A stretch of 34,153 nt of DNA from an uncultured Deferribacteres bacterium (GCA_964014485.1 CAXHAT010000081.1:1-34153); one strand, 5' to 3'; positions 15,135-33,940 are shown, numbered from the stretch's first letter. The notes: a model not told the origin generated them from the letters alone. Numbers and translations are program-made.

Positions 15135-16031
15135 ATGTCCGTCTCGTCTTATCAATTCATCGACCCCAAAACGCTGGCTGCGATTCGCGATTTGCAATTG
15201 ATCGCCAAGCGCGTCGCCGAGGGCGTTATGCTGGGAATGCACCATAGCCCAAAGCCGGGCGCGGGGCTGGAATTCAGCCAATATCGCAGCTACCAGCCAG
15301 GCGACGATCCGCAGCACATCGACTGGAAAATGTTCGCCCGCTCCGACCGCTACTACGTTCGCGAATCCGAAATCGAATCGAGCATTGGCGTTCATTTCAT
15401 TCTCGACGCCAGCGCATCGATGCTGCACCAGGACGACGGGCTTTCAAAGTTCGACTACGCGAGATTTCTGCTCGCATCCCTGGGCTACCTCGCTTTTAAT
15501 CAAGGCGACGCCATCGGGCTGACCGCAATTGACGGGACGGAATCGCACAACTTGCCCCTGCGGCACACCACGCAGCATTTACATCGCTTCCTGCATCATC
15601 TGGAAAAAATCCGTCCTTCCGGGAAATGGCCGGAATGGCGTTCCCTAGAACCGCGTCTCGGTTTGAACGGCCGCAACCGCTCGATGATCATTTTCGTCAG
15701 CGACATGCACGAAGTCGATGGAGAAATCCGCGAATCGCTTGCAAAGCTCGCCGCCATGCGAAATGAGGTGATGCTTTTTCAAATTATCGCGCAAAATGAG
15801 TTGGAATTTTCCTGGCGAGGCGTGGTGGATTTTGAAGATTTGGAGACAGGGCAAGCAATGCAGGTCAACGCCGATGAGATGCGCACGTCTTACAAAAAGA
15901 ACCTCACCGCACACCTGCAAACGTTGCGAAAAGAACTCCACGATTTACACATTTTCTACGAAGCGCTCTCAACCGCCAAACCCCTGGACGGCGCCCTGCG
16001 AGAATTTTTAAAGCGGCGGTCTCAGTTGTAG
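15135..16031 (+). CDS. DUF58 domain (vWA-like) protein
   Basis: GMHHSPKPGAGLEFSQYRSYQPGDDPQHIDWK, ILDASASM MIDAS-like motif, FVSD. Confidence 0.92.
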   Translation: MSVSSYQFIDPKTLAAIRDLQLIAKRVAEGVMLGMHHSPKPGAGLEFSQYRSYQPGDDPQHIDWKMFARSDRYYVRESEIESSIGVHFILDASASMLHQDDGLSKFDYARFLLASLGYLAFNQGDAIGLTAIDGTESHNLPLRHTTQHLHRFLHHLEKIRPSGKWPEWRSLEPRLGLNGRNRSMIIFVSDMHEVDGEIRESLAKLAAMRNEVMLFQIIAQNELEFSWRGVVDFEDLETGQAMQVNADEMRTSYKKNLTAHLQTLRKELHDLHIFYEALSTAKPLDGALREFLKRRSQL

Positions 16032-18367
16032 TCCTTCAAAATTTCTCCGAGCTCATCAACCACTTGATCGGCGTTTTGCTTCGAGAATGTCATCGGCGGT
16101 TTGATTTTGATGACATTGTGCAGCGGGCCGTCCGTACTCAGAAGAATGCCGCGTTCCTTCATTTGCTCCACAATTTCGGACGCTTCTTTAGCGGCGGGCG
16201 TGAGCGAATTCGATTCGTCGGACGGACGGATGAATTCGACGCCGAGGAACAATCCCTGACCGCGCACGTCGCCGACAATTTGATGCTTGTTTTTCAAGCT
16301 TTGGAGGCGTTCCAATAAATAACCGCCAACTTCGAGCGCATTTTGCTGCAATTGGTCGTGCTCAATAGCGTCCAAGACCGCCAGACCGACGGCGCAGGAC
16401 ACGGGGTTGCCGCCAAAGGTGTTGAAATACTCCATGCCGTTGTTGAATGCCGCCGCGATTTCCGGCGTTGTCACCACCGCCGCCAGCGGATGTCCGTTGC
16501 CAATCGGCTTGCCCAACGTCACAATATCCGGGACGACGTCTTGCATTTCAAAGGCCCAGAAGTGCGATCCCGCACGCCCAAAACCGACCTGCACTTCGTC
16601 CGCGATGCAAACGCCGCCTTCTGCGCGAACGTGCTTGAACGCCTGCCCCAAATAATTCTCCGGCAAAATGATTTGCCCGCCGCACCCGAGCATAGATTCG
16701 CAAATAAACGCCGCCGGAGCGTGTCCGTTTTCTTTCAATTTGTCGATAATTTCCGCAACGTGCTGTGCGTATTTTTTGCTCGCGTTTTCATTGGATTTTT
16801 TATAGGGCCCGCGAAAAACGTCCGGCATAATTGCTTTGTGAACATGCGTCTTCTGATCGAATCCGCCCGGGCCTTCATACTTGTAAGGGCTAATTTCAAT
16901 CAACGCCGCAGTATTGCCGTGATAAGCCCCGTCGACTGTGATGAGATCACGATTTCCCGTATACGTTCGAGCCAAGCGCAGAGCCAATTCATTCGCTTCG
17001 CTGCCGGAGCAGACGAAAAAGCAAACGCTGAGCGGCTCCGGCAAGGTTGCCGCCAAGCGATCAGCAAAATCGATAATATTGTCATGCAAATAGCGCGAGT
17101 TCGTGTTTAAAATCGCCATTTGCTCAGAAGCGGCGCGAACGACGCGCGGATGGCCGTGCCCGACATGGCTGACATTATTGACGCAATCGAGATAAGTTTC
17201 GCCGCGATCATCAAAAAGATACTGCATCGCCCCGCGAACGATTTTGAGCGGCTTTTGATAGGAAATGCTCAAAGACGGCCCGAGGTTTTTCCGCCTGCGA
17301 TGCAAAATTTCATCGGAATTTGATTTTTGGGGAAACGGCTCAAGGCCGCAGGCTCGACGAAACGAGCTAATCGCCTGCTCTGGATTTATAGTGATCAATC
17401 TTTCCAGCGCATCCCAGGCGGGCTTTTCGCTGATTTGTATGTATGCGTTATCCGGCTCCAACTTGCTGCGCCGCGCCGAATTCAAGACGCTGACGCAAAG
17501 CCGCGCGCACATCGAATAAAAAAGAACTTCGATTTCATCTTCATTGAGCGGAAACTCGGCGTGAAATCCTTTCGCGACAGCGCTCGCGGTTTCAATTGGA
17601 TCGCTTTTATCCAGAATTGCATAAGCGCAAACCACCGCGAGTTCGAAAATTGTGTTTGAGAAAACCAAATCGCCGAAATCAATCACTGCATCGGCAATGA
17701 CGGTTTCATTTGAGTTTTTTCTTGTGAGAACATTGTAATCGTTGCCGTCGTTGTGGATGACGCTGCGACGAAGATCGCCAAGCCGAGGGAGGACGGCGTT
17801 TTCGAATTGCAAAAGAAAATACTCGACCAGCGTTCTTCGGCGCGGCGGATAAATGTCATTAACGAAGCGTCGAGCATCGAGCGCATAAACCAAGTCCCAT
17901 GCAAAGCGACGCATGGCTCCCGGATGCTCAAAATCAGACAGGGCTTTGGTCATGCCGCCGAACAGTGCGCCGAGGCTTTTGAGAAACGGCAGGTTTTGAT
18001 CCTGTACATCCGCCCACATCCCGCCTTCGATCCACGAAACCAACCAGACTAAATATTGCTGATCATTCCGCCCAACAACACGTTCAATCGCTAAATTGTT
18101 AGTCGATCTGTGAGGCGCGGGAAATCTGACGCTGTCAGAATCGTTTTTGTTCTGGAGATGGTCTAAAATCGCGACCTGCGCTTCTAGCTCAAGCCTGGGC
18201 GTATCGGAGTTGGCGATTTTGAAAACGAAAGAGCCGTTTGAAGATTGCACAAAAAAATTCTGATCACAGTAACTCACGAGCGGTTTCATAACGCTCGGTT
18301 TGATATTGAAAAGTTCAAGTAAAAAGCGAGAAGCCTGACGTTCAGAAAAACTTGGCGATGGAGTCAT
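16022..18367 (-). CDS. Fused APH/choline-kinase-like phosphotransferase and class-III PLP aminotransferase (hydroxylysine kinase / phospho-lyase-like)
   Basis: N-terminal HNDGNDYN and IDFGD kinase motifs; C-terminal [39 protein letters not shown] (PLP Lys), FNTFGGNP. Start is probably ATG 18367; alternative is TTG 18397. Confidence 0.88.
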
Positions 18368-18598
18368 TAGACCGTTCCACAAAAATTTCAATTCCAAGGG
18401 TTTTCGAAAGAATACAAAAAGCGCCGTTTCTTCAAACTAAAAGCGCTTTTAAAAGCAACGTTGATCAAAAAAATCGGCTGGCGTTTGATGATCCGACATT
18501 TCGCCCGTCAATCGGCGCATTTGAAATCATTTGTTTGACGGGATGCTTTTTCGACGATTTTGGCTTGTTTGCAATATACTTTCAAGCCTGATTTTGTT

Positions 18599-18884: not shown

Positions 18885-20057
18885 ATGATTCGACGTGTAA
18901 TATCTGAATGTATTCGCAGCCGATTGAGAAATTTCCCTGCGGCGGCTCTTTTGGGACCACGACAAGTCGGCAAAACGACATTGGCCAAATCATTGTCAAC
19001 GACCTACTACGATCTCGAGTTGGAAGAAGACAAAGTGCGACTCGATTTACAATGGCCCGAACTCGTAGAAACCGACCGATTGGTCATTCTCGATGAAGCG
19101 CAAAATTTTCCGGAAATCTTTCCAAGAATAAGAAGCGCCGTGGATGAGAGCAGAACCCGGAACGGGCGATTTCTAATTTTAGGCTCCGTTTCGCCGGAAT
19201 TGATGCATCAAGTCTCTGAAATTTTGACCGGCAGGATTGCAATATGTGAGCTCGCCCCGTTTTCAATTCAAGAAGTGAGCGATGTACCGGAAAACCAGAT
19301 GTGGTTACACGGCGGCTATCCGGACGGCGGCCCGTTGAAGAAAAGCGGATTTCCGATTTGGCAGCAAAACTACCTGGATTTACTTGCAATGCGGGATCTT
19401 CCGTTGTGGGGTTTACCCGCAAAACCGCATGTCACGAAACGGTTTTTCAAGATGGTCGCCGCCATTCACGGCCAGGTATGGAATGCCAGTCAAATGGGCA
19501 AGAGTTTGGGCGTCAGTTACCACACGGCAAATTCATATCTTGACTATCTGCAGCGCGCTTATTTGATTCGCACCACGCCCCCGTTTTACGCCAATATCAA
19601 AAAGCGACTTATCAAAAGTCCCAAAGTTTATTGGCGAGACTCAGGACTCTTACATAGCCTGCTCAATGTGCGAGGCATAAACGACTTACTAACTCAACCG
19701 TGGGTCGGTTTTAGTTGGGAAGGCTGGGTCATAGAGCAAATCATCATTTTTTTGAACAACCGCGACATTCAGTTCGATGGTCCGTATTTTCTCCGCACAA
19801 AGGACGGCGAAGAGCTGGATTTGGTTTTGATTATTTCAGGCGAACTCTGGGGCATTGAGATTAAATTAACAACCAACCCATCCGCACAAAGTCTGGAGAA
19901 GTTGAAAAAGACCGGCCAACTCATTGATGCGACTAAATTGGCGCTTATTTCGAGAACGAAAAAAACTGTCGCCGGGAACAACGTCTTCTCCACTAATTTG
20001 ACTGGTTTTATAGACCTTATTTTAGAAAAACACACCAACAGTTTTGGGGAACAATGA
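18885..20057 (+). CDS. AAA_14 ATPase with winged HTH and DUF4143 (PD-(D/E)xK-like) C-terminus
   Basis: GPRQVGKTT Walker A, ILDEAQ Walker B, FLILGS, GGYP, KRLIKSPKVYWRDSGL, RTKDGEELDLV...IEIK. Confidence 0.9.
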   Translation: MIRRVISECIRSRLRNFPAAALLGPRQVGKTTLAKSLSTTYYDLELEEDKVRLDLQWPELVETDRLVILDEAQNFPEIFPRIRSAVDESRTRNGRFLILGSVSPELMHQVSEILTGRIAICELAPFSIQEVSDVPENQMWLHGGYPDGGPLKKSGFPIWQQNYLDLLAMRDLPLWGLPAKPHVTKRFFKMVAAIHGQVWNASQMGKSLGVSYHTANSYLDYLQRAYLIRTTPPFYANIKKRLIKSPKVYWRDSGLLHSLLNVRGINDLLTQPWVGFSWEGWVIEQIIIFLNNRDIQFDGPYFLRTKDGEELDLVLIISGELWGIEIKLTTNPSAQSLEKLKKTGQLIDATKLALISRTKKTVAGNNVFSTNLTGFIDLILEKHTNSFGEQ

Positions 20058-21586: not shown

Positions 21587-23356
21587 TTAGCGACGCACTA
21601 ATGTGATGGTAATGCCCCAATTCGTCGGGTCGTGCGGCGGCGAGGCGTTCCAATCGTTAAACGAATGCGAGTCGTCGGACTCATAAAAGACGATGTATTC
21701 GCCGCGATCCAATGATATTCTCTCGCTAACCATCCGATTTTTTCTGGCTCCGCCCGCACGATCAGTGTCATCATATTCCATTTCCCAGACCACCTTGCCC
21801 GTCTCGGCGTTTTCGATCCAGCCGAAATCATACATTTTGCCGTCCATTCCCTCGCCAAGCGCGTAAATTTGAATTTGTGCGTCGCGATCCAGAGTGAAGC
21901 GTTTGCGCTCATATTCTTCGTCGCGGACATGGATAATTCTCGCCAGCACGTTCGGGTCGTTTTCCGGCTTGTACTCCGAAACGTCGCTGGAATAAAAATT
22001 CGCATCCGCCGGCATGACACTCAGCCCATAATGTTCCTGATCATATGGCGGCGAAGCGTTCCAGTCGCGATAGGAGTGCGAATCGTCGGTGACGAAATAT
22101 GCGATGTAATTTCCGCGTGAGAGTGTAACCGTCTCGTCGTAGAGTCGGTTTTTCTCAGCGCCTCCGCCGTGCTCCGTATCGCGAAGTTTCATCTCCCAGA
22201 CTTTCTCGCGAGAGTTCGCATCGACGATCCAGCCGTAGTCAAACATTTCGCCGTCGCGACCTTCACCGATGGCGTAGATGTGAAGTTTCATCTCGCGATT
22301 CAGCGTAAAACCCTTTTCAAAAAATTCGTCATCACGGGCGTTAGTGAACGAGACGAAGGCGTTTTTAAAGGTCGTGTCTTCATAATCGTAGGCTTGAAAA
22401 TCACGCCGGGCGTCGGCGTTCTTGGAAGAAATCTTCAATCCCCAAAAAGCGGGGTCGTAGGGTGGCGGTGAATTCCATTCCTGCGGCGAATGCGAATCGT
22501 CCGTTACCACAACGGCGACGTACTTGCCGGCGGGCAGCGTAATCGTTTCTTGCGCCATGCGATTTTTCACCGCGCCGCCTGCACGTTCGGAATTGCGGTA
22601 ATCCAGTCGCCAGACTTTTTCGCGCGTCTCGGCGTTCATGATGTAGCTATAATCGAAATTGCCGTCTCGGCGCGCTTCGCCGACGGCGTAGAGATCGAGC
22701 TCAAGTGAATTTGAAAGCGTGAAGCCGACGCGCTCGTACATTTCGTCGCGATTGGCGAAAACAAAAGCCAGCGCGTCTTTTCTCTGCGTTTCAATTTTCT
22801 CGTTCAGTTCGTTCTTCGAAATTGAGCGACCGTCTGCTGTGATGCGGAAATAGAAATCGCGACTTAAATCATCATATTCCTCATCGTCGCGATTGAAAAT
22901 GCCCCGAAAAATGTTGGAGACGATGCCGCGCGACCACCATTGTCCTGAGCTTGAATGCCAGCCATCATCATTGTCGCGAAAGTAATAAGGGAAGGAAGCA
23001 AAATACGCTTCGTAAGTTCCGGCGGGCAAGCGTACCGTTTCGGTGTATTCTTCAACTCGCGGGCCTCGACGCGGGAAAGCGGCGCCGTCCATTTCCCAGA
23101 CTACTTTTCGCGTTTCGCTGTTGAGAATCCAGCCGTAGCCGAACATAAAACGATCTTCCCGGCGTTCGTCGATGTAGTGAATGCCAGCAATCTCGATCTT
23201 TATTTCTTCCGCGCTGTCCAATCGAAAACCATTGGTTCGCAACTCTTCCGGGTAGACGTTTTTAATATTCGCAACGGCCTCTTGCCGCGCCTGAAGTCCG
23301 CCAGTCAGAAGCGCAAGAATCAAAAGCGTCAAAACGCGCTGAATGATTTGTTTCAT
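21587..23356 (-). CDS. Secreted protein with four ~120-aa internal repeats, function unknown
   Basis: Signal peptide (MKQIIQRVLTLLILALLTGGLQA). Repeated GWI-N/DA-T/S-xxVWEM...GGA-KNR...L-xG-Y...DDSHS...WN-SPP-D motif. Confidence 0.85.
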   Translation of the reverse strand: MKQIIQRVLTLLILALLTGGLQARQEAVANIKNVYPEELRTNGFRLDSAEEIKIEIAGIHYIDERREDRFMFGYGWILNSETRKVVWEMDGAAFPRRGPRVEEYTETVRLPAGTYEAYFASFPYYFRDNDDGWHSSSGQWWSRGIVSNIFRGIFNRDDEEYDDLSRDFYFRITADGRSISKNELNEKIETQRKDALAFVFANRDEMYERVGFTLSNSLELDLYAVGEARRDGNFDYSYIMNAETREKVWRLDYRNSERAGGAVKNRMAQETITLPAGKYVAVVVTDDSHSPQEWNSPPPYDPAFWGLKISSKNADARRDFQAYDYEDTTFKNAFVSFTNARDDEFFEKGFTLNREMKLHIYAIGEGRDGEMFDYGWIVDANSREKVWEMKLRDTEHGGGAEKNRLYDETVTLSRGNYIAYFVTDDSHSYRDWNASPPYDQEHYGLSVMPADANFYSSDVSEYKPENDPNVLARIIHVRDEEYERKRFTLDRDAQIQIYALGEGMDGKMYDFGWIENAETGKVVWEMEYDDTDRAGGARKNRMVSERISLDRGEYIVFYESDDSHSFNDWNASPPHDPTNWGITITLVRR

Positions 23357-23512: not shown

Positions 23513-24202
23513 TTATACCCGAAACTGCTTGTTAAAATTCTCCGTGACCACCTGCCCGTCGAAGAGATGAATCACGCGGTGGCTGTATTCGGCGTAGGAA
23601 GGCGAGTGCGTGACCATGATGATCGTCGTGCCGTCTTCGTTCAATTCAGTGAGCATTTCCATCACTTCATCGCCGTGTTTGGAGTCGAGGTTTCCGGTAG
23701 GTTCGTCGGCGAGGATCAATTTTGGCCGACCAACGACGGCGCGCGCAACGGCGACGCGTTGCTGCTGGCCGCCGGAGAGTTGTTGGGGATAATGGTTGCG
23801 CCGGTGCATAATTTCCATTTTTTCGAGCGCTTCTTCAACGCGCTGTTTGCGCGTCGCGCCCGGGACGTTCTGGTAGAGCAGCGGCAATTCAACGTTTTCG
23901 AACACTGTCAGTTCGTCAATAAGGTTGAAACTCTGAAAAACAAAGCCGATGTTCATTTTCCGCAGCTCGGCGCGCTGGCGTTCGGTGTAATCTGAAACTT
24001 CTTCTTCAACAAAAAAATACTCGCCGCCGTTTGGGTTGTCAAGTAAGCCAAGAATATTTAAAAGTGTGGATTTACCGCAGCCGGAAGGCCCCATGATTGA
24101 AACAAATTCCCCGTCTCTAATCTCAAAACTGACGTGGTTGAGCGCGGTGGTTTCAACTTCGTCCGTCGTATAAACTTTCGAAAGCTCATTGATGCGAATC
24201 AT
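23513..24202 (-). CDS. ABC transporter ATP-binding protein (LolD/MacB-like)
   Basis: [38 protein letters not shown]. Confidence 0.95.
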
Positions 24203-24455: not shown

Positions 24456-24488
24456 TTGACATTTTCAAGTCACTTTGATATTGTGACT
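24456..24488 (+). promoter_or_regulatory. Putative sigma70 promoter of the TIR-STAND operon with overlapping inverted repeat
   Basis: TTGACA (24456-24461), 17 nt, TATTGT (24479-24484) with extended TGn. AGTCAC-N9-GTGACT (24468-24488) straddles the -10. Confidence 0.55.
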
Positions 24489-24655: not shown

Positions 24656-26155
24656 ATGAGTGTCAGCAGATTTCCAAATGACCTTTTTATCAGTTACGCG
24701 CATATCGACAATCAGGCTCTGAGTCCCGATCAACGCGGCTGGATTGACGAGTTCCATCGTTGCCTGGAAATTCGCCTGCAACAGCTTCTCGGCGAAAAAC
24801 CGGAGATTTGGCGCGATCCGAAATTGCAGGGGAATGACTACGTTCAGGAAGAAATCGTAAGCAGGTTTTCCGAAGTCGCGATACTGGTCTCGGTGCTGTC
24901 GCCGCGATATGTGAAATCCGAATGGTGCATGAAGGAACTCGACGGGTTTCTGCACGAGGCTGAGGCGAAAGGCGAGCTCAAGATCGGGACGAAATCCCGC
25001 GTTTTCAAAATCATTAAAACGCACCTGCCTTTGGATGAGCACCCGGAGCCGCTCCAAAAACTGCTTGGTTATGAATTTTACCAATACGATGACGTCACTG
25101 GCAGAGCAAGAGAATTTTGGGGAGCGTTTGGGCCGGAGGCAAGCAGACGGTTTTATGCGAAATTGGATGACGTCGCCTGGGACGTCAAAGATTTATTGTC
25201 GGAATTAGCTTCGACGAACGGTCGCCACAAAGAGAACGGCAAGCAAAAACCCGCCGCAACAATATATCTCGCCACAACCACGACAGACCTTAACGACGAA
25301 TACCAAAAGCTTAGACGAGAATTCGTGCATCGCGGGTACTGCGTACTCCCGGAAGAAACGTTGCCGATGAACGGAAAACGCCTGCGCGAACAAGTCAAGC
25401 AAGACCTTGAGCAGTCACTGATTTCCATCCATCTCGTCGGCGGTAAATACGCTTCCATCCCGGAAGAAGAAACGGCGTCTAACTCTTTTATTCAAAAAGA
25501 ACTTGCCGCTGAACAAACCCGAAGGCCGAACTTCCATCAAATTGTCTGGCTGCCCGTGGAACTGGAGATTTCTGATTCTAGGCAGGAAGAATGGGTGGAA
25601 ACTTTGCGCAACAGCGATCCCGCACGGCAAAACTTCGACCTGTTGCAAACGCCGCTCGAAGAACTCAAAACATTCACTGAAGATAAAATCAAGCACCTTT
25701 TGAGGCCCGCCAAAACCAAACCGTCGGGCGAATCGCCCGCGCACATTTATTTGATTCACGACCATGCGGACGAAGACGCCGTCCAGCCATTGAACGACTT
25801 TCTTTTCGACAGCGGCTTCGAGGTTCTCCGCACTTATGCTGAAGAAGACGAATCCGACTTCCACAAAGAGCACATTGAGAATTTGACGATTTGTGATGCG
25901 GTCGTCATCTATTTCGGGCAAGTCACGGAACGCTGGGTGCGCTCCAAATTACGCGACCTGATCAAGACCCGCGGCTATGGACGCGAAACGCCCCTGGATG
26001 CAAAAATGATTTACATCGACGACGACGGTTCGCCGGGCAAACAGCGGTTTCGGACGCACGAAGCGGAAGTCGTTAGGGCAAAAAAGGCTTTTAGTCCGGA
26101 AGCATTGACTTCCTTTATCGCTGATCTTCGCAACGGCGACGGGAGGCGCTCATGA
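24656..26155 (+). CDS. TIR domain protein with two additional TIR/DUF4062-like alpha/beta domains
   Basis: N-terminal DLFISYAHID...IWRD...LSPRYVKSEWCMKEL (TIR, Glu94). Two further modules begin IYLATT and IYLIHD. Confidence 0.85.
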   Translation: MSVSRFPNDLFISYAHIDNQALSPDQRGWIDEFHRCLEIRLQQLLGEKPEIWRDPKLQGNDYVQEEIVSRFSEVAILVSVLSPRYVKSEWCMKELDGFLHEAEAKGELKIGTKSRVFKIIKTHLPLDEHPEPLQKLLGYEFYQYDDVTGRAREFWGAFGPEASRRFYAKLDDVAWDVKDLLSELASTNGRHKENGKQKPAATIYLATTTTDLNDEYQKLRREFVHRGYCVLPEETLPMNGKRLREQVKQDLEQSLISIHLVGGKYASIPEEETASNSFIQKELAAEQTRRPNFHQIVWLPVELEISDSRQEEWVETLRNSDPARQNFDLLQTPLEELKTFTEDKIKHLLRPAKTKPSGESPAHIYLIHDHADEDAVQPLNDFLFDSGFEVLRTYAEEDESDFHKEHIENLTICDAVVIYFGQVTERWVRSKLRDLIKTRGYGRETPLDAKMIYIDDDGSPGKQRFRTHEAEVVRAKKAFSPEALTSFIADLRNGDGRRS

Positions 26156-29100
26156 ACGCGCAACAATCGCCGCAAGCCAATCCGTTCCCCGGCCTTCGTC
26201 CTTTTGAAAAAGAAGAAAATCACCTGTTTTTCGGACGCGACGGCCAGAGCGACGAGCTTTTGAGTCGTTTGCGCAAAAACCGTTTTCTCGCGGTTGTCGG
26301 CACGTCGGGAAGCGGCAAATCTTCGCTGGTGCGCGCCGGACTGCTCCCCGGGCTGGAAGGCGGCATGATGTTAAAAGCGGGGACGCATTGGCGCACCGCA
26401 ATCTTTCGCCCAGGCAACCACCCAATCGCCAATTTGGCCAAAGCGCTCAACGAAGCGGACGTTTACAGCAAAAACGGCGGAGAAACCGTAACCCACCAGA
26501 TTTTCACGGAAACGGCGCTCCGGCGCGGCGCCGTCGGCCTGATTGAAGCTGTGACGGATGCCCGTCTCCCCCAAAACGAAAAACTTTTGCTGGTTGTTGA
26601 TCAATTTGAAGAATTGTTTCGCTTCAAGTCCGGGACGGATTCGATCAAGGGTTACGATGAAGCCGCGGCCTTTGTCAAGCTCCTGCTCGAGGCCTCCTGG
26701 CAAGAAACCCTGCCAATTTATGTCGTCCTGACGATGCGCTCCGATTACATCGGCGATTGCGCGCAATTCCGCGATCTGCCGGAAGCGATCAACGACGGCC
26801 AATACTTGATTCCACGCATGACGCGAGAACAGCGTCGCCAGGCTATCTCCGGGCCGATCAAGGTCGGCGGCGGAGAAATTAGCGCAAGATTGACGAACCG
26901 GGTGTTGAACGAAGTTGGCGACAACCCGGATCAACTGCCCATTTTGCAGCATGCGTTGATGCGCACCTGGGACTTTTGGGAAAGCGCCCGCAAGAACGGC
27001 GAACCCATCGATATTGAGCACTACGAAAGCATCGGCGGCTTGCAGCGCGCACTCTCGAAACACGCCGACGAAGCCTTCAAAGAACTGCGCGGCAAACGGA
27101 ACAAGCAAATCACTGAAAAGCTTTTCAAGGCATTGACCGAAAAGGAATCCGAGAATCGCGAAATTCGCCGCCCGGCAACGCTTGCCCAAATTTGCGAAAT
27201 CGCCGAAGCTGAAGAAGACGAGGTTTTGGCGATTGTCGAAACGTTCCGCAAGCCGGGGCGCGCCTTTCTCATGCCGCCGGTCAGGGAATCCATTTCCACG
27301 CACACACTCATCGACATTTCGCATGAAAGCTTGATTCGCAATTGGCTGCGACTCAAAAAATGGGTGGACGAGGAAGGCGAATCCGCGAGAACCTACAAAA
27401 GATTGGCGGAAACAGCGGTGCTCTACAAAGAAGACCGCGCCGGACTCTGGCGCAATCCCGATTTGGAAATGGCCCTCGCCTGGCGGGAGAAGGCGCATCC
27501 AAACGCTGTTTGGGCTGCACGCTATTCGCCGCATTTTGAAATAGCGACCTCTTTTCTGGAGGAAAGTCAACTTGCTCATCAACTCGAGTTGGCGGCGATT
27601 GAAGAAGCGCGGCAGCATGAGCTTGCACAAGCAAAAGCGTTGGCCGAGGAGCAAAGCCTGCGCGCTGAAGCGGAAAAAAAACGCGCTCAAGAACAGGAAC
27701 AATCGGCCAGAAGGTTGAAGCGCGGCGCGATTGTTTTGCTCGTGGTGATGGTCATCGCGGTCGTCGCCGCAATCTTCGCACTCCAACTCAAACAAACCGC
27801 CGATGAAGAACGCCAAAATGCCGTTGATAATTTTGAGCTTGCCAAAGAAAATGAACGGCAAGCCAACCTGGCGCGACAGGTCGCGGATTCCGCCAAAATC
27901 GTCGCCTTGGAAGAACGGCGGATCGCGGATGAAAGGAGATTGGAAGCGGAGCGACAACGCAACAGAGCCTTGCAGCAAGAAAGAATTGCGAACGCGAACC
28001 TTGAACGTGCGGAAACCGCTGAAGAAGACGCCTTAAACCAGGCTCGCCTTGCGAAAGACAACGCTGAGGCGGCGCGACAGAGTCAGATTGCGGCTGAAAG
28101 ACAAGCGCAAATCGCCGACAGCCTGCGCAAAATCTACCTCGTCCGCTCCCTCGCCTCGGTGGCGCCGTTGCAGCAGCAGATTGGACAGGATGAACGCGGC
28201 GCATTGCTGGCGTTGCAAGCTTATCATTTCAATGAATCACAGGCGGAGGCTTCGCAAACGCCGGAAGTTTACGAAGGTCTGCGTCGTTCGCTCAATGCGC
28301 CGTTTTTTTCTGAGGGCGCGGAATTGGGGCTGGGCGGTCCGCGGCTTAAACGCAAACACGACGATTGGGCGCGAACCGTGGCTTATCATCCAAACGGCGG
28401 CTTCATTGCTTCCGGCAGCGGCGACGGCAGAATCTATCTTTGGGATCTGCAGCAAGACAGCGTTTACACAATGTCGGGGCACGCCGGCAGCGTGCGGGCG
28501 ATAACGTTCAGCGCCGGAGGGGATTCGCTTTTTTCCGGCAGCGATGACGGGACCATCCGCTTGTGGTCAAACATGTTTCGCGGCAGAGCGGCCTCCCGAA
28601 CTCTGACGGGGCACAAAGAACGCGTCTGGGCAATTGACCTAAGCCCCGATAATCGCATTCTCGCTTCCGGTGCGGCGGATGGAGAAATTCTGATCTGGCA
28701 ATTGAGCCGCTCGACCAATTCGCCCAAAAGCGCATTGCCCTCCAAAGCGCCCATACGCGCGCTGACTTTCGCCGACAACGGCGAAACGCTCCTGAGCGCC
28801 GGTCGCGACGGCGAGGTTACCGTTTGGGCAAAGAACAGCGCCGGGGATTTCGATAAAAGCCACGAATTTCAAGTCTCGGATCAAATCAACGCGATTGTCC
28901 TAAGTCCGGACGGCAATGAACTGGCGCTCGGGCTGCAGCAAGGCGCGGTCAGCGTGCTGAACTGGAAAGACCAAAACCAGTCACCTCGCCAGCTTTACCG
29001 TCACGACGGCGGCGTGACGTCTCTGGCGTACTCGCCGGACGGAATCACGCTCGCGTCGGGCGGTTACGACAAAACCGTCCGACTGACGCCGTTGAACGCC

Positions 29101-29355
29101 GCTCTCACTCGCCCGTTGATTTTGCAAGCGCACGAGGATTGGGTGCTTTCGATTGCTTTCAGTCCGGCCGGCGACCGCATCGCTTCCGGCGGAGCCGACC
29201 GTGCAATCGGTCTCTGGTATACAAATCCTGATAATCTCGCCGAACTCGTCTGTCAAAAAGTGCAGCGCAGTCTGTCGCAGGAAGAATGGGCGCAGTTTAT
29301 CGGCAACGATTTAAAGTACGAAGAATCATGCGGAAGGCCTTCTTCCAAACAATAA
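26152..29355 (+). CDS. nSTAND1-type P-loop NTPase with TM helix, coiled coil and 7 WD40 repeats
   Basis: NPFPGLRPF...FFGRD, GTSGSGKSS, LVVDQFEELF, LTMRSDY, LPILQHAL, ISHESLIRNW. TM at about 27724-27783, seven WD40 units from about 28357 to 29220. ATGA overlap with the TIR gene. Confidence 0.92.
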   Translation: MNAQQSPQANPFPGLRPFEKEENHLFFGRDGQSDELLSRLRKNRFLAVVGTSGSGKSSLVRAGLLPGLEGGMMLKAGTHWRTAIFRPGNHPIANLAKALNEADVYSKNGGETVTHQIFTETALRRGAVGLIEAVTDARLPQNEKLLLVVDQFEELFRFKSGTDSIKGYDEAAAFVKLLLEASWQETLPIYVVLTMRSDYIGDCAQFRDLPEAINDGQYLIPRMTREQRRQAISGPIKVGGGEISARLTNRVLNEVGDNPDQLPILQHALMRTWDFWESARKNGEPIDIEHYESIGGLQRALSKHADEAFKELRGKRNKQITEKLFKALTEKESENREIRRPATLAQICEIAEAEEDEVLAIVETFRKPGRAFLMPPVRESISTHTLIDISHESLIRNWLRLKKWVDEEGESARTYKRLAETAVLYKEDRAGLWRNPDLEMALAWREKAHPNAVWAARYSPHFEIATSFLEESQLAHQLELAAIEEARQHELAQAKALAEEQSLRAEAEKKRAQEQEQSARRLKRGAIVLLVVMVIAVVAAIFALQLKQTADEERQNAVDNFELAKENERQANLARQVADSAKIVALEERRIADERRLEAERQRNRALQQERIANANLERAETAEEDALNQARLAKDNAEAARQSQIAAERQAQIADSLRKIYLVRSLASVAPLQQQIGQDERGALLALQAYHFNESQAEASQTPEVYEGLRRSLNAPFFSEGAELGLGGPRLKRKHDDWARTVAYHPNGGFIASGSGDGRIYLWDLQQDSVYTMSGHAGSVRAITFSAGGDSLFSGSDDGTIRLWSNMFRGRAASRTLTGHKERVWAIDLSPDNRILASGAADGEILIWQLSRSTNSPKSALPSKAPIRALTFADNGETLLSAGRDGEVTVWAKNSAGDFDKSHEFQVSDQINAIVLSPDGNELALGLQQGAVSVLNWKDQNQSPRQLYRHDGGVTSLAYSPDGITLASGGYDKTVRLTPLNAALTRPLILQAHEDWVLSIAFSPAGDRIASGGADRAIGLWYTNPDNLAELVCQKVQRSLSQEEWAQFIGNDLKYEESCGRPSSKQ

Positions 29356-29372
29356 AATTTGGAGTAAACGCC

Positions 29373-29894
29373 ATGCGACGGAAGAACAAAAACAAGAAAG
29401 CGCCGCCGACAATCCGGCTGGCCATTGTACTGCTTTGTTCCAGCGTTTTTCCGACCGTCATTGAGGCGCAGACCAACTGCCAGGAAATGATTGCGCGCGC
29501 CAATCGCGCTTTGCAGGCGGGACGGTTTGAAACATCTATTCGCGTTTTGAACCAGACGATTGAGAGCAATTGCTCCCTGACAGACCAAACCCAGGCGCAC
29601 AGACTTCTGGCCTTGAGCTACATTGGCGCAGACTCTTCGAAAGCGGCCGTCAAGTTTGTTGTGCATGACTTGATCGCCCTGAACCGAAAGTTTTCGCCTT
29701 CTTTAAATGATCCCCATTTGTTCAAAGAGTTGGTGAAGCAAAGAAAACGACACTTGGCCAAAAAGCGCCGCAGAAATCGCTTCTTGAAAATTGGCGGCGT
29801 CGCCCTGGCGGTCGTCACGCCGAGTTATTTGCTCATGACAAGACCGCCGAATGCTTTGCCTGGTCCGCCGAGAGGAGGGCCGGGACATAATTGA
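29373..29894 (+). CDS. Small exported TPR-like protein with C-terminal TM helix and Pro-rich tail
   Basis: Start reassigned to ATG 29373 (GGAG RBS, 17 nt after the STAND stop). Signal peptide ending IEA-Q, helical QAGRFE...AHRLLALSY segment, KKRRRNRFLK + hydrophobic helix + LPGPP. Confidence 0.7.
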   Translation: MRRKNKNKKAPPTIRLAIVLLCSSVFPTVIEAQTNCQEMIARANRALQAGRFETSIRVLNQTIESNCSLTDQTQAHRLLALSYIGADSSKAAVKFVVHDLIALNRKFSPSLNDPHLFKELVKQRKRHLAKKRRRNRFLKIGGVALAVVTPSYLLMTRPPNALPGPPRGGPGHN

Positions 29895-29962
29895 ATGGAT
29901 TTTCTTGTGAATCGTCCAGGTCTGACCGAACTCATCTATTCATCACGACTTGAGGAATAGTC

Positions 29963-32900
29963 ATGAAGAAGGTAGTTTTTCTAACATTTTTTTGCAGCCT
30001 GATAAACTTCTCAACCGCTCTTTCTCGGCAGCCGGAGTTAAGCGTTAGCTCCAGGAATTTCCCTTTGGCTGATTGTAATGCGGAAGGCGAAATCACGATT
30101 AAAAATACCGGAGACGGCCAATTGCGGTGGCAAGTCGCTTCGGGCTTTCCTGCCTGGATTATCGTTGATGATGACGGCGCTGATAAATCCTTGGGCGGCG
30201 GCAAGGAAGCAACGATCAAGATTACGGCGAATTGCGAAAATTTACAGCCCGGCGAGGAAGAAGGCGATCTCACAATCGAACAAACCAACGGCGACGCCAG
30301 CAAAACGGTAACGATTGCCGTGAAAATCCCCAGCCTTGAAGTGACTCCGCTGTCCTTGACTTTTGACGAAGGCATGTTCGACCCGACAACCAAAGCGATC
30401 AAAATAAGAAATGACGGCGGAGAAGGGACTCTGAAATGGAGTCACGACGCACCGTCGCGGAACTGGATTACGGTCAAATCCGCGCCATCGAAAAAGGAAG
30501 TCCAAAAAGGAGATGAGCAGACAGTCACGGTAAGCGTTAACCCTGGAAGCCTCCCCAAAGGCCGGAAAGACGGAACGCTCACTTTTAGAGCGTTAAATTC
30601 CAATGGCGCGGAGGAAACCGTCAGTATTACGATGAATATTCCCAACCATGCGCCGAAGCTTGAAAGGGCGTTTCCCGATATTCCGGATTTCAAAAAGATC
30701 GATCAAGGCAAACCCAAGAGTACGATAGACTTGAACTTGCATTTTGGCGATCAAGACAACGACAAGCTCGAATTTGCAGCCACGCTGACTCCGGCGCAAA
30801 ACGAGAACATCTCAATCGAGATTGGCGCCGACGACATTCTTATTCTCACGCCGCTCAAGAAAGGCGGCGGCGCATCCACGATTACAGTTGAAGCCGACGA
30901 TAATGACGGCGGCAAAACGAGCAGTGATTTTACCGTCACAGTCGTCAACTCGCAACCGACGCTCAAAAGGGAATTTGGCAAAATCGCGTTCACCAGGGCG
31001 CAAGGGAAAGAAAACATCAAGTTAACGGACTTCATCGAAGACAAGGACGAGGATGAACTCGATTTCATTTTCGCTATGTTTGACAACAGCGGCGTCGAGT
31101 CCCCGAGCGTTTATGACGCCGAGGTTACGGAAAGCGATGACCTGATTTTGACGGCAATCGCCAAAGGCAACACCGTTAGAGCGACCATCGAAGCTAAAGA
31201 CGGAGAAGATTTCGAAGATTTTCCAGTCGATATTCAAATATTGAATTCGCCGCCCAGCGTCGATCCGAACAACCGATTGAGGGATCGAACTCTGCTTTTG
31301 GGAGAAATTTTTGTTTTGAATCTGGAAGGCAATTCGCCGGTTTTCTCAGACGCGGACACAGACGTTTCCGATCTTTACAGTTACGCCCGAGACACGCTGT
31401 TGTACGCCAACACATCGTCAGACACTTCCATCGCCTCTGCTTTTTCGGTGATTAATGACACCATCAATATTCCTAACGCGCTCTTTGTTCAAGCGAAAGA
31501 TTCCGGTCAAGCGACGATTACGGTCGTGGCGATTGACGATAACGGCGAGCAAGCGAGAGATGATTTTACGGTCAAAATTGGACTTAACCGCCCGCCGGTT
31601 TTGATCACGGAGAATAAAATCGACGACCAGGTTTTGACGGTCGGCGGCCCTGACTTTTCGATGAATCTTACAGAGAATCATGTTTTTGTTGACCCGGACA
31701 CCGCGGATAATTTGACTTATTCCGTCGAAAGTCTCGATCCGTCCATAGCTTTTGCTCTGATCGATTCCGGCGATGTTCTGAAAGCATTCCTGACGACGCC
31801 GGACAGCATTGGAGACGCAACAAGTATTATCGTGAATGTGGAGGACGGATTTGGCGGAAGTGCGTCAGACATTTTCAGCGTCAAAGTCAATTTCCCGCCT
31901 CGCGTGAAAGCGGAAGCGCCGAGATCGCTGCTGCTTCAAACCAGTGAAGAAAGCACGTTGGATTTGAACGCGGTCTTTTTTGATCCCGAAGAGCAAGCGC
32001 TAAATTTCCCCGATACGATTTGGACGCCAACGCATCTGGAAATATCTAAAACGGCGAATTTAGTCAATTTTAAAGGTCAGTCGCTAGGTTCGGATACGAT
32101 CAGATTTATCGCGGACGACGGCGTTGAAGGCGGGGTCGGCGTTTTCGACTTGATTGTCAATGTCGATGAACCGCCGATGATTTCTTCGGCTCCTCCCGTC
32201 GGTGCAATTGACGACAGCAGCATCGTTCTCACGGCGCAAATATCGGATCGCGGCAGCAGCGAGGCCGTTGCCGGGATTGAAACGGCGATTCTCAATTTCC
32301 GAAGAGGCGGCGATTCCAGCTTTTTCTCCATCCAGATGGACCCTGCGGATTTGGCGGATAATTTTCAGGTCAACCTCCCCGCTTTCGCCGTGACTTCGCG
32401 CGGCGTTGAATACACGATTGAAGCGCGGGACTTGGCGGGCATAACCGCGATCAATCCGGAACACGGATTTCAATCGATTCGCGTGCGGGTCGGAGGCGAA
32501 GGTGCGATTGCCGCGAACCCGCAACCGGCGGGAAAGGATACCACGCAATATCGTCTCGTTTCCTTCCCTCTGGAATTGGATCGCCCCGCACCGGCGGACG
32601 TCCTTGCCGATGATTTAGACCCCTACAAAAATTATCTCTGGCGTTTTTTGCTGCCCCACGCCGACGGCTTCTCGTTCACGGATTTTCCGGATATCGAAAG
32701 AGTCACGCCGGGGCAGGCTTATTGGATTATTGTGAAAAACAAAGACAAGGTGATTGATACCGGCTCCGGCGTTTCAATTCCAACCGACAAGCCTTTTGAA
32801 ATCGATATTGCTCCGGGATTGAACTTTGTCGGAACGCCGTTCACATTTCCAACCAATATCGCAGATACGCTCGCAAGCGGCGCGCAAACGCCCGTTCTTT

Positions 32901-33829
32901 ATCATTATGAAAGCAAATGGAGCGATCCGCTGACGGACCCCGTGGAAAGAATGGAGCCGTTTGAAGGCTACTGCCTGGTGAGCAACAATTCAGCGGCGGA
33001 CGTCTTATTTCTCACCTCGGACACCACTTCTCCCAGACGCTTTTTGACCAAACAAGCGATGTTAGCCGAAAACCGGATCGAATGGTCGATTCGGATCGTC
33101 GCAGCTTCAGGGAACGCCGTTGATGATAATAATCACGCCGGAATCTGGCCGTCCGGCAAGTTTGATTGGGATGAGCGCGACTATCCGGAACCGCCGGTGA
33201 TTGGCGGGTATGTTTCGGTGTATTTTCCGCACCCCGAGTGGGGGCGGTTGAGCAAAAAGTACACGACCGACTTTCGTCCGACGCTGGAAGACGGCGAAGT
33301 GTGGGAATTCGAGGTGTTGAGCAACATTCGCGACGCAGTGCGCTTGTCCTTCGAAGGCGTGGAAGACGCGCCGGAAGCTTACGACGTTTTTCTGCTGGAT
33401 GACGCTGTCAAAACGCCGATCGATCTGCGCGAACGCAACACGTACAGCATTGCAGGACGCGGGCCGGAGCACCCAAAGCGTTTGAAATTGCTCGTCGCCA
33501 AAGGCGCTTTTCTGGACGAAACCTTGACGGATTTCCAGGCCGTTCCAGAGACTTTCGAGCTGGCGCAGAATTACCCCAATCCCTTCAATCCTTCCACCAC
33601 GATCCGCTACGGTTTGCCGCAACCTGCGCGCGTCACCATTCGGATTTACAGCCCGGTCGGAGAACTGGTTCGCACGTTGATCGATGGAGAAGAACACGCC
33701 GCCGGTTATCACACGGCAATCTGGGACGGCAGAAACGCTTCCGGCTTATCGGTTGCGAGCGGCGTTTATCTCTACATGATGCATGCGGGAGCGTTTCGCG
33801 AAGTTAAAAAAATGGCTTTGGTCAAGTAG
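29963..33829 (+). CDS. Large secreted protein: 2 BACON-like domains, tandem cadherin/Ig-like repeats, C-terminal FlgD-Ig/T9SS type A sorting-like domain
   Basis: Signal peptide; ITIKNTGDGQLRW and IRNDGGEGTLKW BACON-like motifs; repeats starting NHAP/NSQP/NSPP/NRPP/NFPP with F-D-D and DD-GG motifs; C-terminal LAQNYPNPFNPSTTIRY...WDGRN..G..VASGVYLY...KKMALVK. Confidence 0.88.
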   Translation: MKKVVFLTFFCSLINFSTALSRQPELSVSSRNFPLADCNAEGEITIKNTGDGQLRWQVASGFPAWIIVDDDGADKSLGGGKEATIKITANCENLQPGEEEGDLTIEQTNGDASKTVTIAVKIPSLEVTPLSLTFDEGMFDPTTKAIKIRNDGGEGTLKWSHDAPSRNWITVKSAPSKKEVQKGDEQTVTVSVNPGSLPKGRKDGTLTFRALNSNGAEETVSITMNIPNHAPKLERAFPDIPDFKKIDQGKPKSTIDLNLHFGDQDNDKLEFAATLTPAQNENISIEIGADDILILTPLKKGGGASTITVEADDNDGGKTSSDFTVTVVNSQPTLKREFGKIAFTRAQGKENIKLTDFIEDKDEDELDFIFAMFDNSGVESPSVYDAEVTESDDLILTAIAKGNTVRATIEAKDGEDFEDFPVDIQILNSPPSVDPNNRLRDRTLLLGEIFVLNLEGNSPVFSDADTDVSDLYSYARDTLLYANTSSDTSIASAFSVINDTINIPNALFVQAKDSGQATITVVAIDDNGEQARDDFTVKIGLNRPPVLITENKIDDQVLTVGGPDFSMNLTENHVFVDPDTADNLTYSVESLDPSIAFALIDSGDVLKAFLTTPDSIGDATSIIVNVEDGFGGSASDIFSVKVNFPPRVKAEAPRSLLLQTSEESTLDLNAVFFDPEEQALNFPDTIWTPTHLEISKTANLVNFKGQSLGSDTIRFIADDGVEGGVGVFDLIVNVDEPPMISSAPPVGAIDDSSIVLTAQISDRGSSEAVAGIETAILNFRRGGDSSFFSIQMDPADLADNFQVNLPAFAVTSRGVEYTIEARDLAGITAINPEHGFQSIRVRVGGEGAIAANPQPAGKDTTQYRLVSFPLELDRPAPADVLADDLDPYKNYLWRFLLPHADGFSFTDFPDIERVTPGQAYWIIVKNKDKVIDTGSGVSIPTDKPFEIDIAPGLNFVGTPFTFPTNIADTLASGAQTPVLYHYESKWSDPLTDPVERMEPFEGYCLVSNNSAADVLFLTSDTTSPRRFLTKQAMLAENRIEWSIRIVAASGNAVDDNNHAGIWPSGKFDWDERDYPEPPVIGGYVSVYFPHPEWGRLSKKYTTDFRPTLEDGEVWEFEVLSNIRDAVRLSFEGVEDAPEAYDVFLLDDAVKTPIDLRERNTYSIAGRGPEHPKRLKLLVAKGAFLDETLTDFQAVPETFELAQNYPNPFNPSTTIRYGLPQPARVTIRIYSPVGELVRTLIDGEEHAAGYHTAIWDGRNASGLSVASGVYLYMMHAGAFREVKKMALVK

Positions 33830-33940
33830 CAAGACGTTCACCCTGCCATTGAATCGGGCGCACTATTTGAAAGTTGAGCGACCAAACTTTGTGCGCCCGG
33901 ACATGTCGCTTGCAAATCAAGCGCTTGTACCGTATTTTTC

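Follow-up and report, generated by a model that had tools for sequence, protein, structure and literature searches.

A four-gene cassette of an uncultured Deferribacteres bacterium probably encodes a single trans-envelope receptor system of the STAND (NLR-like) kind, in which a membrane-spanning NTPase is predicted to expose a WD40 propeller to the periplasm and to work together with two exported proteins. The cassette lies on a DNA stretch of 34,153 nucleotides (GCA_964014485.1 CAXHAT010000081.1:1-34153), here called the window, which is an entire contig (C81) of an 8.4-Mb genome that is 97% complete. Its four open reading frames (ORFs), g1 to g4, are all found on the + strand, at 24656-26155, 26152-29355, 29373-29894 and 29963-33829. 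The g1/g2 junction is an ATGA overlap at 26152-26155, read directly off the sequence, and spacings of 17 nt (29356-29372) and 68 nt (29895-29962) separate g2 from g3 and g3 from g4. An earlier note on this DNA had described the same co-orientation, overlap and gaps, which the sequence confirms, and had proposed a relay from the cell surface to the cytoplasm. That proposal draws support from conserved synteny, predicted topology and co-folding.

The architecture of g2 (26152..29355, 1067 aa) is central to the argument. Pfam, hydropathy and charge analysis divide it into an nSTAND1 NTPase, a transmembrane (TM) helix, a stalk and a WD40 propeller. The NTPase domain, residues 11-428 (26182..27435), scores 340.4 bits with PF20703, whose cut-off is 27.1, and 344 bits when the whole genome is searched. 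It contains the Walker A motif GTSGSGKS at residue 50 and the Walker B region LLLVVDQFEE at 145-154, and residues G53, G55, K56, S57 and D150-E154 are invariant in a six-sequence alignment (A2). With this profile match, an intact P-loop, an acidic Walker B and C-terminal repeats next to an associated TIR gene, g2 has the attributes of an nSTAND1 protein. A coiled-coil-like stretch leads into the predicted TM helix at residues 525-544 (27724..27783), which scores 3.36 on the Kyte-Doolittle scale over 19 residues, and a linker of 176 residues follows. This predicted periplasmic stalk (residues 545-720, 27784..28311) consists to 67% of A/E/R/Q/K/L, and its first 127 residues, free of Pro and Gly, would measure about 19 nm if helical (0.15 nm per residue, our own arithmetic). 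The median linker of the NTPase-WD40 family is 175 aa long. The propeller itself occupies about residues 730-1030 (28339..29241; Pfam, 180 bits) and is predicted to be periplasmic.

That the propeller lies beyond the inner membrane, as the earlier note had it, is favored by the presence of one strong TM helix and by the asymmetric charge of its flanks. In g2, the 15-residue flanks hold six K/R on the N side and two on the C side. A TM helix was found in 61 of the 66 NTPase-WD40 relatives examined, and in these 61 the mean K/R count is 6.1 on the N-side flank versus 2.9 on the C side. In 59 of the 61 the N-side flank also has the higher net charge (the other two show no difference), which supports a cytoplasmic NTPase and a WD40 domain outside. 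TM and export calls throughout this work derive from hydropathy and charge counts.

The same genome offers an internal test of how stable the cassette is. Using tblastn together with ORF maps, Pfam and hydropathy, we identified three further cassettes, two of them complete and the third truncated where its contig ends (loci L009-L011). On contig C29 (23931-33338), a Pkinase-AAA_35 gene is followed by AAA_35-TM-WD40, a 179-aa g3 homologue and a 1311-aa giant with BACON, Big_9 and type IX secretion system (T9SS) domains. On C128 (721-13299), the order is CHAT-TIR-AAA_35, AAA_35-TM-WD40, a g3 homologue and a 2264-aa FG-GAP/ASPIC/T9SS giant. C257 (2-3483) encodes a TIR protein and an nSTAND1-TM-WD40 protein before the contig ends. 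Among the three complete cassettes, effector and NTPase family vary, and the TM-stalk-WD40 part, g3 and the T9SS giant are constant. As a separate observation, the AAA_35 domains of the effector gene and of the receptor gene are paralogous, and for this reason a hetero-oligomer of the two NTPases is suggested.

Similar arrangements are found throughout the phylum. A three-sequence g3 profile (E <= 1e-3) detected g3 matches in 67 of 167 genomes when that of the window is counted; among the 105 genomes of high quality, 45 gave a match. We then mapped 40 g3-centred loci, comprising 39 g3 genes, with our own small hidden Markov models (HMMs). A same-strand upstream gene is present for 36 of the 39: 14 encode NTPase-TM-WD40 proteins, 12 other proteins with a central TM helix, two proteins with g4C (a module of g4 described below) and eight something else. 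By Pfam the 12 central-TM proteins are kinase-PEGA or caspase-PEGA proteins. A Pfam scan of 27 g3-upstream proteins returned 13 Pkinase-PEGA, two caspase-PEGA and one PEGA protein preceded by a CHAT gene. The genes in front of the NTPase genes include SIR2_2 and Pkinase-AAA_35 (two loci each). Downstream, a protein with g4C or a T9SS C-terminal domain occurs within two genes of g3 in 23 of the 35 cases with a same-strand downstream gene. When the search is centred on NTPase-TM-stalk-WD40 genes instead, g3 is directly downstream in nine of the ten judgeable loci besides the window; two others end too early.

Outside the phylum, we analyzed the best 80 of 552 relatives, mostly from Acidobacteriota and Bacteroidota with a few from other phyla. 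Within this sample, a TM helix is located at residues 400-620 in 65 of 73 judgeable proteins, and a TIR gene of about 500 aa is adjacent in 49 of 78 loci, with a same-sized gene that the crude HMM missed in nine more. A g3-domain protein comes next downstream in 33 of 40 WD40-type loci, counted where a close same-strand downstream gene exists, versus 0 of 16 loci of the non-WD40 type. The g3 match spans roughly the first 105-160 residues of these downstream proteins (E 1e-5 to 1e-24), and the remainder is most often an outer-membrane protein: according to Pfam, 24 of 32 are OMP_b-brl_2 barrels, six are TonB-dependent receptors and two have no match. An identification of the Bacteroidota g3-barrel proteins as PorP/SprF was considered and rejected, as NCBIfam gave no match (L116) and Pfam only the generic OMP_b-brl_2. 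Together with the three cassettes of this genome and the phylum loci, these counts bear out the claim that the third and fourth genes are kept beside TIR-STAND homologues. The earlier note had staked its proposal on this conservation and on the side of the membrane taken by the WD40 domain, and both came out in its favor.

The Bacteroidota loci extend the comparison to g4. In these genomes the g3-barrel gene is followed by a gene for a protein of about 400 aa and of no family and then by the T9SS giant; 11 of 23 loci contain a same-strand ORF that is 1000 aa or longer, the second ORF is cut by the locus end in 13 of 23, and a Por_Secre_tail domain is found in five of the six complete downstream giants scanned. 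Since TIR protein, NTPase, g3-domain barrel and T9SS giant are all found there, the complete set of four parts is present in a second phylum as well. The family also occurs in cultured, harmless isolates, such as Sediminibacterium goheungense DSM 28323 (L114) and Mucilaginibacter hurinus ZR32 (L143). Acidobacteriota provide a variation on the theme. Five loci (L093, L095, L098, L104 and L105) combine TIR and nSTAND1-TM-TPR genes with a Phenol_MetA_deg barrel that carries no g3 domain, which looks like a parallel pairing of another periplasmic repeat with another barrel. On a side note, a protein of about 1050 aa with 8-12 hydrophobic segments is encoded directly upstream of the TIR gene in Bacteroidota. 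It occurs, like the 400-aa protein, at L103, L106, L113, L116, L118, L120, L123, L125, L127, L130, L152, L163 and others; the one example scanned, from L116, gave a weak HEAT_2 match.

Hydropathy and alignment describe the small protein encoded by g3 (29373..29894, 173 aa) as a signal-peptide-like N-terminus, a Cys-bearing TPR-like helical domain, a basic stretch, a Gly-rich C-terminal hydrophobic segment and an LPGPP tail. It belongs to no family in Pfam, NCBIfam or PADLOC, and the designation 'TPR protein' given to it earlier holds in that the small helical domain is TPR-like, but there is no Pfam TPR match. In an alignment of 42 g3 sequences (A3), the signal peptide ends in AQ and is immediately followed by a Cys in 33 rows; a second Cys is present in more than 90% of rows, in the window's g3 five residues later, and a TPR-like AYxLLALAY...P.Y.P motif and a D-P..F motif are shared. 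The C-terminus (29757-29891) of the form restricted to the window's phylum consists of a K/R-rich part, KW, a Gly-rich hydrophobic stretch, a G-rich spacer and a terminal LPxPPxxP. This tail resembles no outer-membrane anchor or sorting signal known to us. Independently, a structure search of the Atlas aligned the g3 model with the N-terminal parts of TonB-dependent-receptor, porin and TonB_C clusters (TM-score by query 0.56-0.69), a result that serves as a lead only.

Co-folding was used to evaluate whether g3 and the propeller form a pair, as the earlier note had suggested. The WD40 domain was supplied as a 46-row alignment and the docking domain of g3 (residues 33-128, 29469..29756) as a 42-row alignment. 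The prediction reached an interface score (ipSAE) of 0.82 (0.79, 0.84 and 0.82 in individual runs) versus 0.00 for the best of three controls. Both partners have a predicted local distance difference test (pLDDT) score of 89 or more, and the runs share at least 92% of contacts. When the tool was calibrated, 116 of 157 solved complexes reached the mark, as did 2 of 215 mismatched pairs; these counts are a rough guide only, our own alignments being used here. The predicted contacts are made by loops of many propeller blades and by g3 residues 48-51, 87, 112 and 114-116. At the level of the model, these results support binding of the g3 domain by the WD40 propeller.

At the cytoplasmic end, g1 (24656..26155, 499 aa) is the predicted effector. 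Pfam, AlphaFold2, Foldseek and hhalign describe a TIR domain followed by two tandem DUF4062-like (TIR-like) domains. The TIR_2 match covers residues 11-105 (24686..24970; 47.8 bits, cut-off 28) and includes the motif S88-x-W-C-x-x-E94, of which 39 of 49 homologues retain E94 and 44 retain S88; the Glu of this helix is the catalytic residue of TIR NADases. The catalytic role of the conserved Glu in TIR NADases is likewise treated in two 2026 preprints, which describe DUF4062 (NIR) domains as Glu-dependent TIR-like NADases (bioRxiv 2026.05.01.722283 / PMC13174449; 2026.09.04.749371; part of the text of these and of the other papers cited here was available to us). A further 2026 preprint, on 'Evangelion', presents DUF4062 in the same way in its available part. 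D2 (residues 198-352) and D3 (358-496), together at 25247..26143, are assigned to this type by Pfam and hhalign, with a DUF4062 match at residues 203-283 of 22.9 bits, just under the cut-off of 24.7. In D2 the Glu at the TIR-equivalent position (E282) is kept in 26 of the 49 homologues, and D3 has a Lys there; at most one of the two domains looks catalytic on the basis of these residues. NCBIfam adds a weak FxsC TIR-like match. The AlphaFold2 model (pLDDT 91) has three alpha/beta domains, and Foldseek relates it to the TIR domain of RUN1 (TM-score by target 0.50), SPARTA TIR-APAZ, RPP1 and two-domain flavodoxin-like proteins. The possibility of three homologous TIR domains was rejected: hhalign detects a relationship only between D2 and D3 (probability 80%, E 1.3e-5), and D1 against either gives a probability below 1%. 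Of the 'multi-TIR' protein first described, one canonical TIR domain stands, but the other two are DUF4062-like and show no detectable sequence kinship to it.

The last gene, g4 (29963..33829, 1288 aa), is predicted to encode a secreted giant with a signal peptide, BACON/Ig-type repeats, the g4C module and a T9SS C-terminal domain (Pfam, NCBIfam). Its N-terminus, MKKVVFLTFF..., is hydrophobic and signal-peptide-like, and Pfam finds BACON_2, a weak Big_9 and FlgD_ig, in agreement with the T9SS-type Ig-repeat protein anticipated for this position. The sorting domain at residues 1201-1288 (33563..33826) matches FlgD_ig with 36.8 bits (cut-off 27) as well as the C-terminal ends of the NCBIfam PorU and PorZ models. 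Core T9SS genes are present in the genome (the translocon SprA, 150 bits; the sortase PorU, 825 bits against a cut-off of 420). With signal peptide, sorting domain and secretion system in place, g4 qualifies as predicted T9SS cargo. The all-beta g4C module of about 500 aa (32030..33562; tblastn, alignment A4, AlphaFold2 pLDDT 84) is common to at least nine giants of this genome by tblastn, and a Foldseek search with its fold returned generic multi-beta-sandwich matches only, for example complement and alpha-2-macroglobulin MG domains, with TM-scores of at most 0.21. Other g4C giants are located at C1:33590-39222, C47:17126-25134, C118:14431-24665, C120:2821-19353 and C28:20037-30393 and on C158 and C341 (loci L012-L018). 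Their neighbors are caspase, Ser/Thr kinase, sigma-54 activator and trypsin-like peptidase genes and a 1511-aa nSTAND1 protein with WD40 repeats across residues 830-1480, and in front of most of them stands a gene for a 180-260-aa protein of no family.

How the four genes are transcribed can be described with less certainty than their order. The 9.5-kb stretch occurs in three DNA runs from a single marine-metagenome study, and no RNA run was listed for it. The earlier note placed them between one promoter and one terminator. A candidate sigma-70-like site, TTGACA-17-TATTGT with TG, is indeed present on the + strand at 24456..24484 (10/12 consensus match, 172 nt 5' of g1), as is a + strand hairpin after g4 (GGGCGCAC...GTGCGCCC, 33856..33898). 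The pair is plausible only, because the statistics of site, hairpin and terminator scan are weak: the region contains 11 sigma-70-like sites versus 5.8 +/- 2.2 in shuffled sequence; the hairpin has no T-run directly 3' and is absent from the scan list, and the 131-nt region around it is not unusually stable (z -1.5); and the terminator scan of the window is at chance level, with 20 found and 19.3 expected.

The cassette is flanked by core genes, namely an F-type ATP synthase operon, parAB, a bactofilin, an M23 peptidase, a ferritin and an ABC ATPase, and the locus is not a defence island. A scan of the window's proteins with PADLOC-DB 2.0, including the Avs and bNACHT models among others, produced noise-level or repeat-driven matches only (PDC-S66 with 21 bits, spbK with 15 bits, and a HEAT-ARM model on the WD40 repeats). 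The check for an already catalogued system that had been proposed thus returned no model above noise. Several other genes of the window are worth recording. A DUF58/vWA protein (15135-16031) and a DUF4143/AAA_14 ATPase (18885-20057) are encoded a few kb upstream on the cassette strand, not adjacent to it and with no link seen. On the - strand, 16022-18397 encodes a 791-aa protein in which an APH-type phosphotransferase domain is fused to a class-III aminotransferase, and 21587-23356 is a 589-aa ORF without a Pfam family that adjoins an ABC ATPase gene (23513-24202). This last pair is divergent from the cassette, with an intergenic region of 450 nt between them.

For the signalling itself, that is its direction, trigger, oligomerization, passage across the outer membrane and NADase output, we infer the following scheme. 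The g2 protein would be anchored in the inner membrane, its nSTAND1 NTPase facing the cytoplasm and its WD40 propeller carried into the periplasm on a helical stalk of about 130-175 residues; there one face of the propeller would dock the small helical domain of g3. This protein, or its barrel-fused equivalents, would tie the periplasmic tip of the stalk to the outer layers and the secreted giant, a role proposed because outer-membrane barrels and TonB-dependent receptors of other phyla carry the same domain at their periplasmic N-terminus. The T9SS-secreted g4 would form the variable, surface-exposed part. A change at the surface or outer membrane, such as binding of a partner, loss or damage, may shift the occupancy of the propeller by g3, and the signal could then travel via the TM helix to the NTPase switch and cause oligomerization in the plane of the membrane. 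NTPase assembly would activate the translationally coupled g1, whose TIR domain, possibly with a DUF4062-like domain, would cleave NAD+ or make a nucleotide signal. Since the heads swap among TIR, SIR2_2, CHAT, caspase and kinase, the sequence comparison argues that g3 and the T9SS giant form a common input module.

Several observations weigh against this scheme or limit it. The contact residues predicted by co-folding are no more conserved than other residues: on the WD40 side mean conservation is 0.375 versus 0.39 elsewhere, with 6168 of 10000 random residue sets doing as well, and on the g3 side it is 0.37 versus 0.45 for the rest. Such values would suit a surface that determines specificity, but equally a wrongly predicted interface. 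The partnership is not exclusive, as g3 also pairs with kinase-PEGA receptors; these lack WD40 repeats, and therefore a WD40 interface cannot be the sole mode of action of g3. Neither is it universal, since a single judgeable nSTAND1-TM-WD40 locus within the phylum (L173, G156:C308:1-6008) has no detectable g3 in the 1.4 kb downstream, and in 12 of the 35 cases, several of them at contig ends, g3 is not followed by a g4-type protein. In the window's phylum g3 has no barrel, and its basic cluster precedes rather than follows the C-terminal hydrophobic segment; this charge placement is the opposite of a normal stop-transfer anchor and unlike a standard type-I inner-membrane anchor. Two Cys in the tail of the WD40 domain, conserved in 36 and 35 of 46 sequences respectively, are not diagnostic of a periplasmic location: the pair was tried as a marker and dropped as topology evidence because a similar motif occurs in a cyanobacterial relative that lacks the TM helix, and the pattern was matched by only 30 of 45 TM forms. 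Finally, the core-gene setting and the lack of a PADLOC model above noise speak against a classical mobile anti-phage island, not against the relay.

What such a receptor would be for can be answered in more than one way. As a tentative proposal, which we regard as possible rather than probable, the system could be a two-membrane outside-in NLR pathway. The variable T9SS giant, with its outer-membrane or g3 partner, would act as a surface tripwire for phage adsorption, for contact with predators or neighbors or for loss of outer layers; the stalk and WD40 domain of the NTPase would sense the occupancy of g3, and TIR-driven NAD+ depletion or signalling would be launched before anything enters the cytoplasm. 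With its swappable heads (TIR, SIR2, caspase, CHAT, kinase) on a conserved module of g3 and T9SS giant, the system would belong to a modular family of surface immune or allorecognition receptors in at least two phyla. The same architecture could also have a housekeeping role that is not directed at invaders, a reading that we consider rather unlikely and still the best of the alternatives. Here the receptor would keep watch on a T9SS cargo protein or adhesin of the cell itself, in terms of export, attachment, tension or envelope integrity, or would drive surface or developmental signalling, and the TIR domain would signal instead of kill. The core-chromosome setting, the absence of a PADLOC match above noise and the several paralogous cassettes in a single genome agree with this, as do the sigma-54 activators and kinases next to g4C giants of this genome and the finding that Ser/Thr kinase-TM-PEGA receptors are the commonest partners of g3 in the phylum (13 of the 27 upstream proteins scanned). 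However, the swappable TIR, SIR2_2, CHAT and caspase heads are known as death or NAD-depletion effectors of conflict systems (PMC7159879, PMC8195603), and nSTAND1 was defined in counter-invader systems, as the available text of the latter paper has it (PMC8195603).

A second alternative restricts the system to g1 and g2, a two-gene TIR and STAND module next to an unrelated exported protein and a T9SS adhesin. TIR and nSTAND1 pairs without g3 do exist in Acidobacteriota and elsewhere, none of the 16 loci of the non-WD40 type has g3, a gap of 68 nt precedes g4, and g4-type proteins are missing from 12 of 35 g3 loci. Yet g3 follows TM-WD40 in all three complete cassettes of this genome, in nine of ten phylum loci and in 33 of 40 elsewhere, its co-fold with the propeller passes the controls, the T9SS giant recurs downstream in two phyla, and the TPR-type relatives of Acidobacteriota have a different barrel gene (Phenol_MetA_deg) downstream in five loci, all of which makes the two-gene module very improbable. 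Least probable of all is that g2 fails to span the membrane with its hydrophobic segment, or spans it in reverse, leaving the WD40 domain as a cytoplasmic sensor like those of Avs or Apaf-1: cytoplasmic versions exist, since 5 of 66 relatives have no TM helix, and the Cys pair does not discriminate, but the hydropathy of 3.36 over 19 residues, the flank charge asymmetry in 59 of 61, the need of the NTPase for cytoplasmic NTP and the conserved downstream partners, all with signal peptides or outer-membrane proteins, stand against it.

The trans-envelope receptor that we favor has analogues in established signalling systems. Animal Toll-like receptors combine an ectodomain and a TIR domain in one chain, have no NTPase and cross one membrane. 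An outside sensor, a single membrane pass and a TIR output would be common to both, and the label 'Toll-like' used in the earlier note stands as a functional analogy only. In systems of the FecA-FecR-FecI type, the periplasmic N-terminal domain of a TonB-dependent transducer signals to a single-pass inner-membrane protein whose cytoplasmic part relays the signal. Comparable to this, the g3 domain is N-terminal to the plug of a TonB-dependent receptor in six of 32 scanned relatives. Unlike there, it is not an STN domain, its predicted partner is a STAND NTPase and not an anti-sigma factor, and the output would be a TIR domain and not an extracytoplasmic function (ECF) sigma factor; the window's g3 has neither barrel nor plug, and the locus contains no sigma or anti-sigma gene. 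The proposed receptor would thus resemble that family in its mode of action without belonging to it.

Closer relatives are found among bacterial conflict systems. Kaur, Iyer, Burroughs and Aravind described nSTAND1 counter-invader systems that share the NTPase clade PF20703 and likewise couple TIR, caspase and kinase effectors to a STAND NTPase with C-terminal repeats (eLife 2021, PMC8195603). The available part of that paper mentions no membrane helix, periplasmic sensor or outer-membrane or T9SS partner for nSTAND1, and in the present case the effector is a separate gene without a recognized adaptor domain. The STAND NTPases of anti-phage defence, such as Avs and bNACHT, follow the same logic of effector, NTPase and repeat sensor, with WD40 among the listed sensors (Nature 2026, PMC13581612). 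They are single polypeptides that sense phage proteins in the cytoplasm, whereas here the predicted sensor is located beyond a TM helix and has conserved exported partners, and no PADLOC model matches. In the accessible text of the same survey, the word 'transmembrane' appears once, in the abbreviation list, and 'periplasm' never. In membrane-proximal conflict systems, too, effectors are coupled to extracytoplasmic domains, with a TM segment followed by PEGA, OmpA or PASTA (Kaur et al., eLife 2020, PMC7159879), and the g3 partners of the window's phylum include comparable kinase- and caspase-TM-PEGA proteins. Those systems are vWA-MoxR/iSTAND or GTPase-centric, and a g3-like adaptor, an outer-membrane barrel or T9SS cargo is not described in the part of the paper at hand. 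DUF4062 NADases adjoin STAND NTPases with WD40 repeats and include TEP1 and NWD1, which have NACHT-WD40 (PMC13174449; 2026.09.04.749371). The middle domain of g1 is a weak match to these, and g1 differs from them in that the match is below the cut-off, the Glu is kept in only 26 of 49 homologues, a canonical TIR domain is present too and the effector is a separate polypeptide.

According to the parts of the cited literature at our disposal, the bacterial STAND or NLR-like sensors characterized so far detect their ligand in the cytoplasm (PMC8195603, PMC10907252, PMC13581612, PMC13174449, 2026.09.04.749371). Targets of the nSTAND1 or NACHT type linked to diversity-generating retroelements (DGRs), some with periplasmic predictions, have been reported (PMC10907252), and the available text of a 2025 preprint has one sentence on 'transmembrane STAND ATPases'. 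We found no published description of an envelope-spanning STAND-TIR/WD40 relay in a search that left aside supplements, a possible source of such architectures. The system is real and conserved, and apparently an unpublished trans-envelope variant of STAND-effector systems. To this family the window contributes the free-standing form of g3 and, in one genome, three paralogous cassettes with different heads. Comparative genomics and co-folding point to a periplasmic sensor propeller that docks a domain found in outer-membrane proteins elsewhere. The WD40 propeller and the g3 domain offer a defined protein pair for testing the receptor-type reading, and the cultured carriers make the question testable. 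If true, NLR-type switches would be wired to events outside the cell, as a bacterial counterpart of receptor-type immunity.

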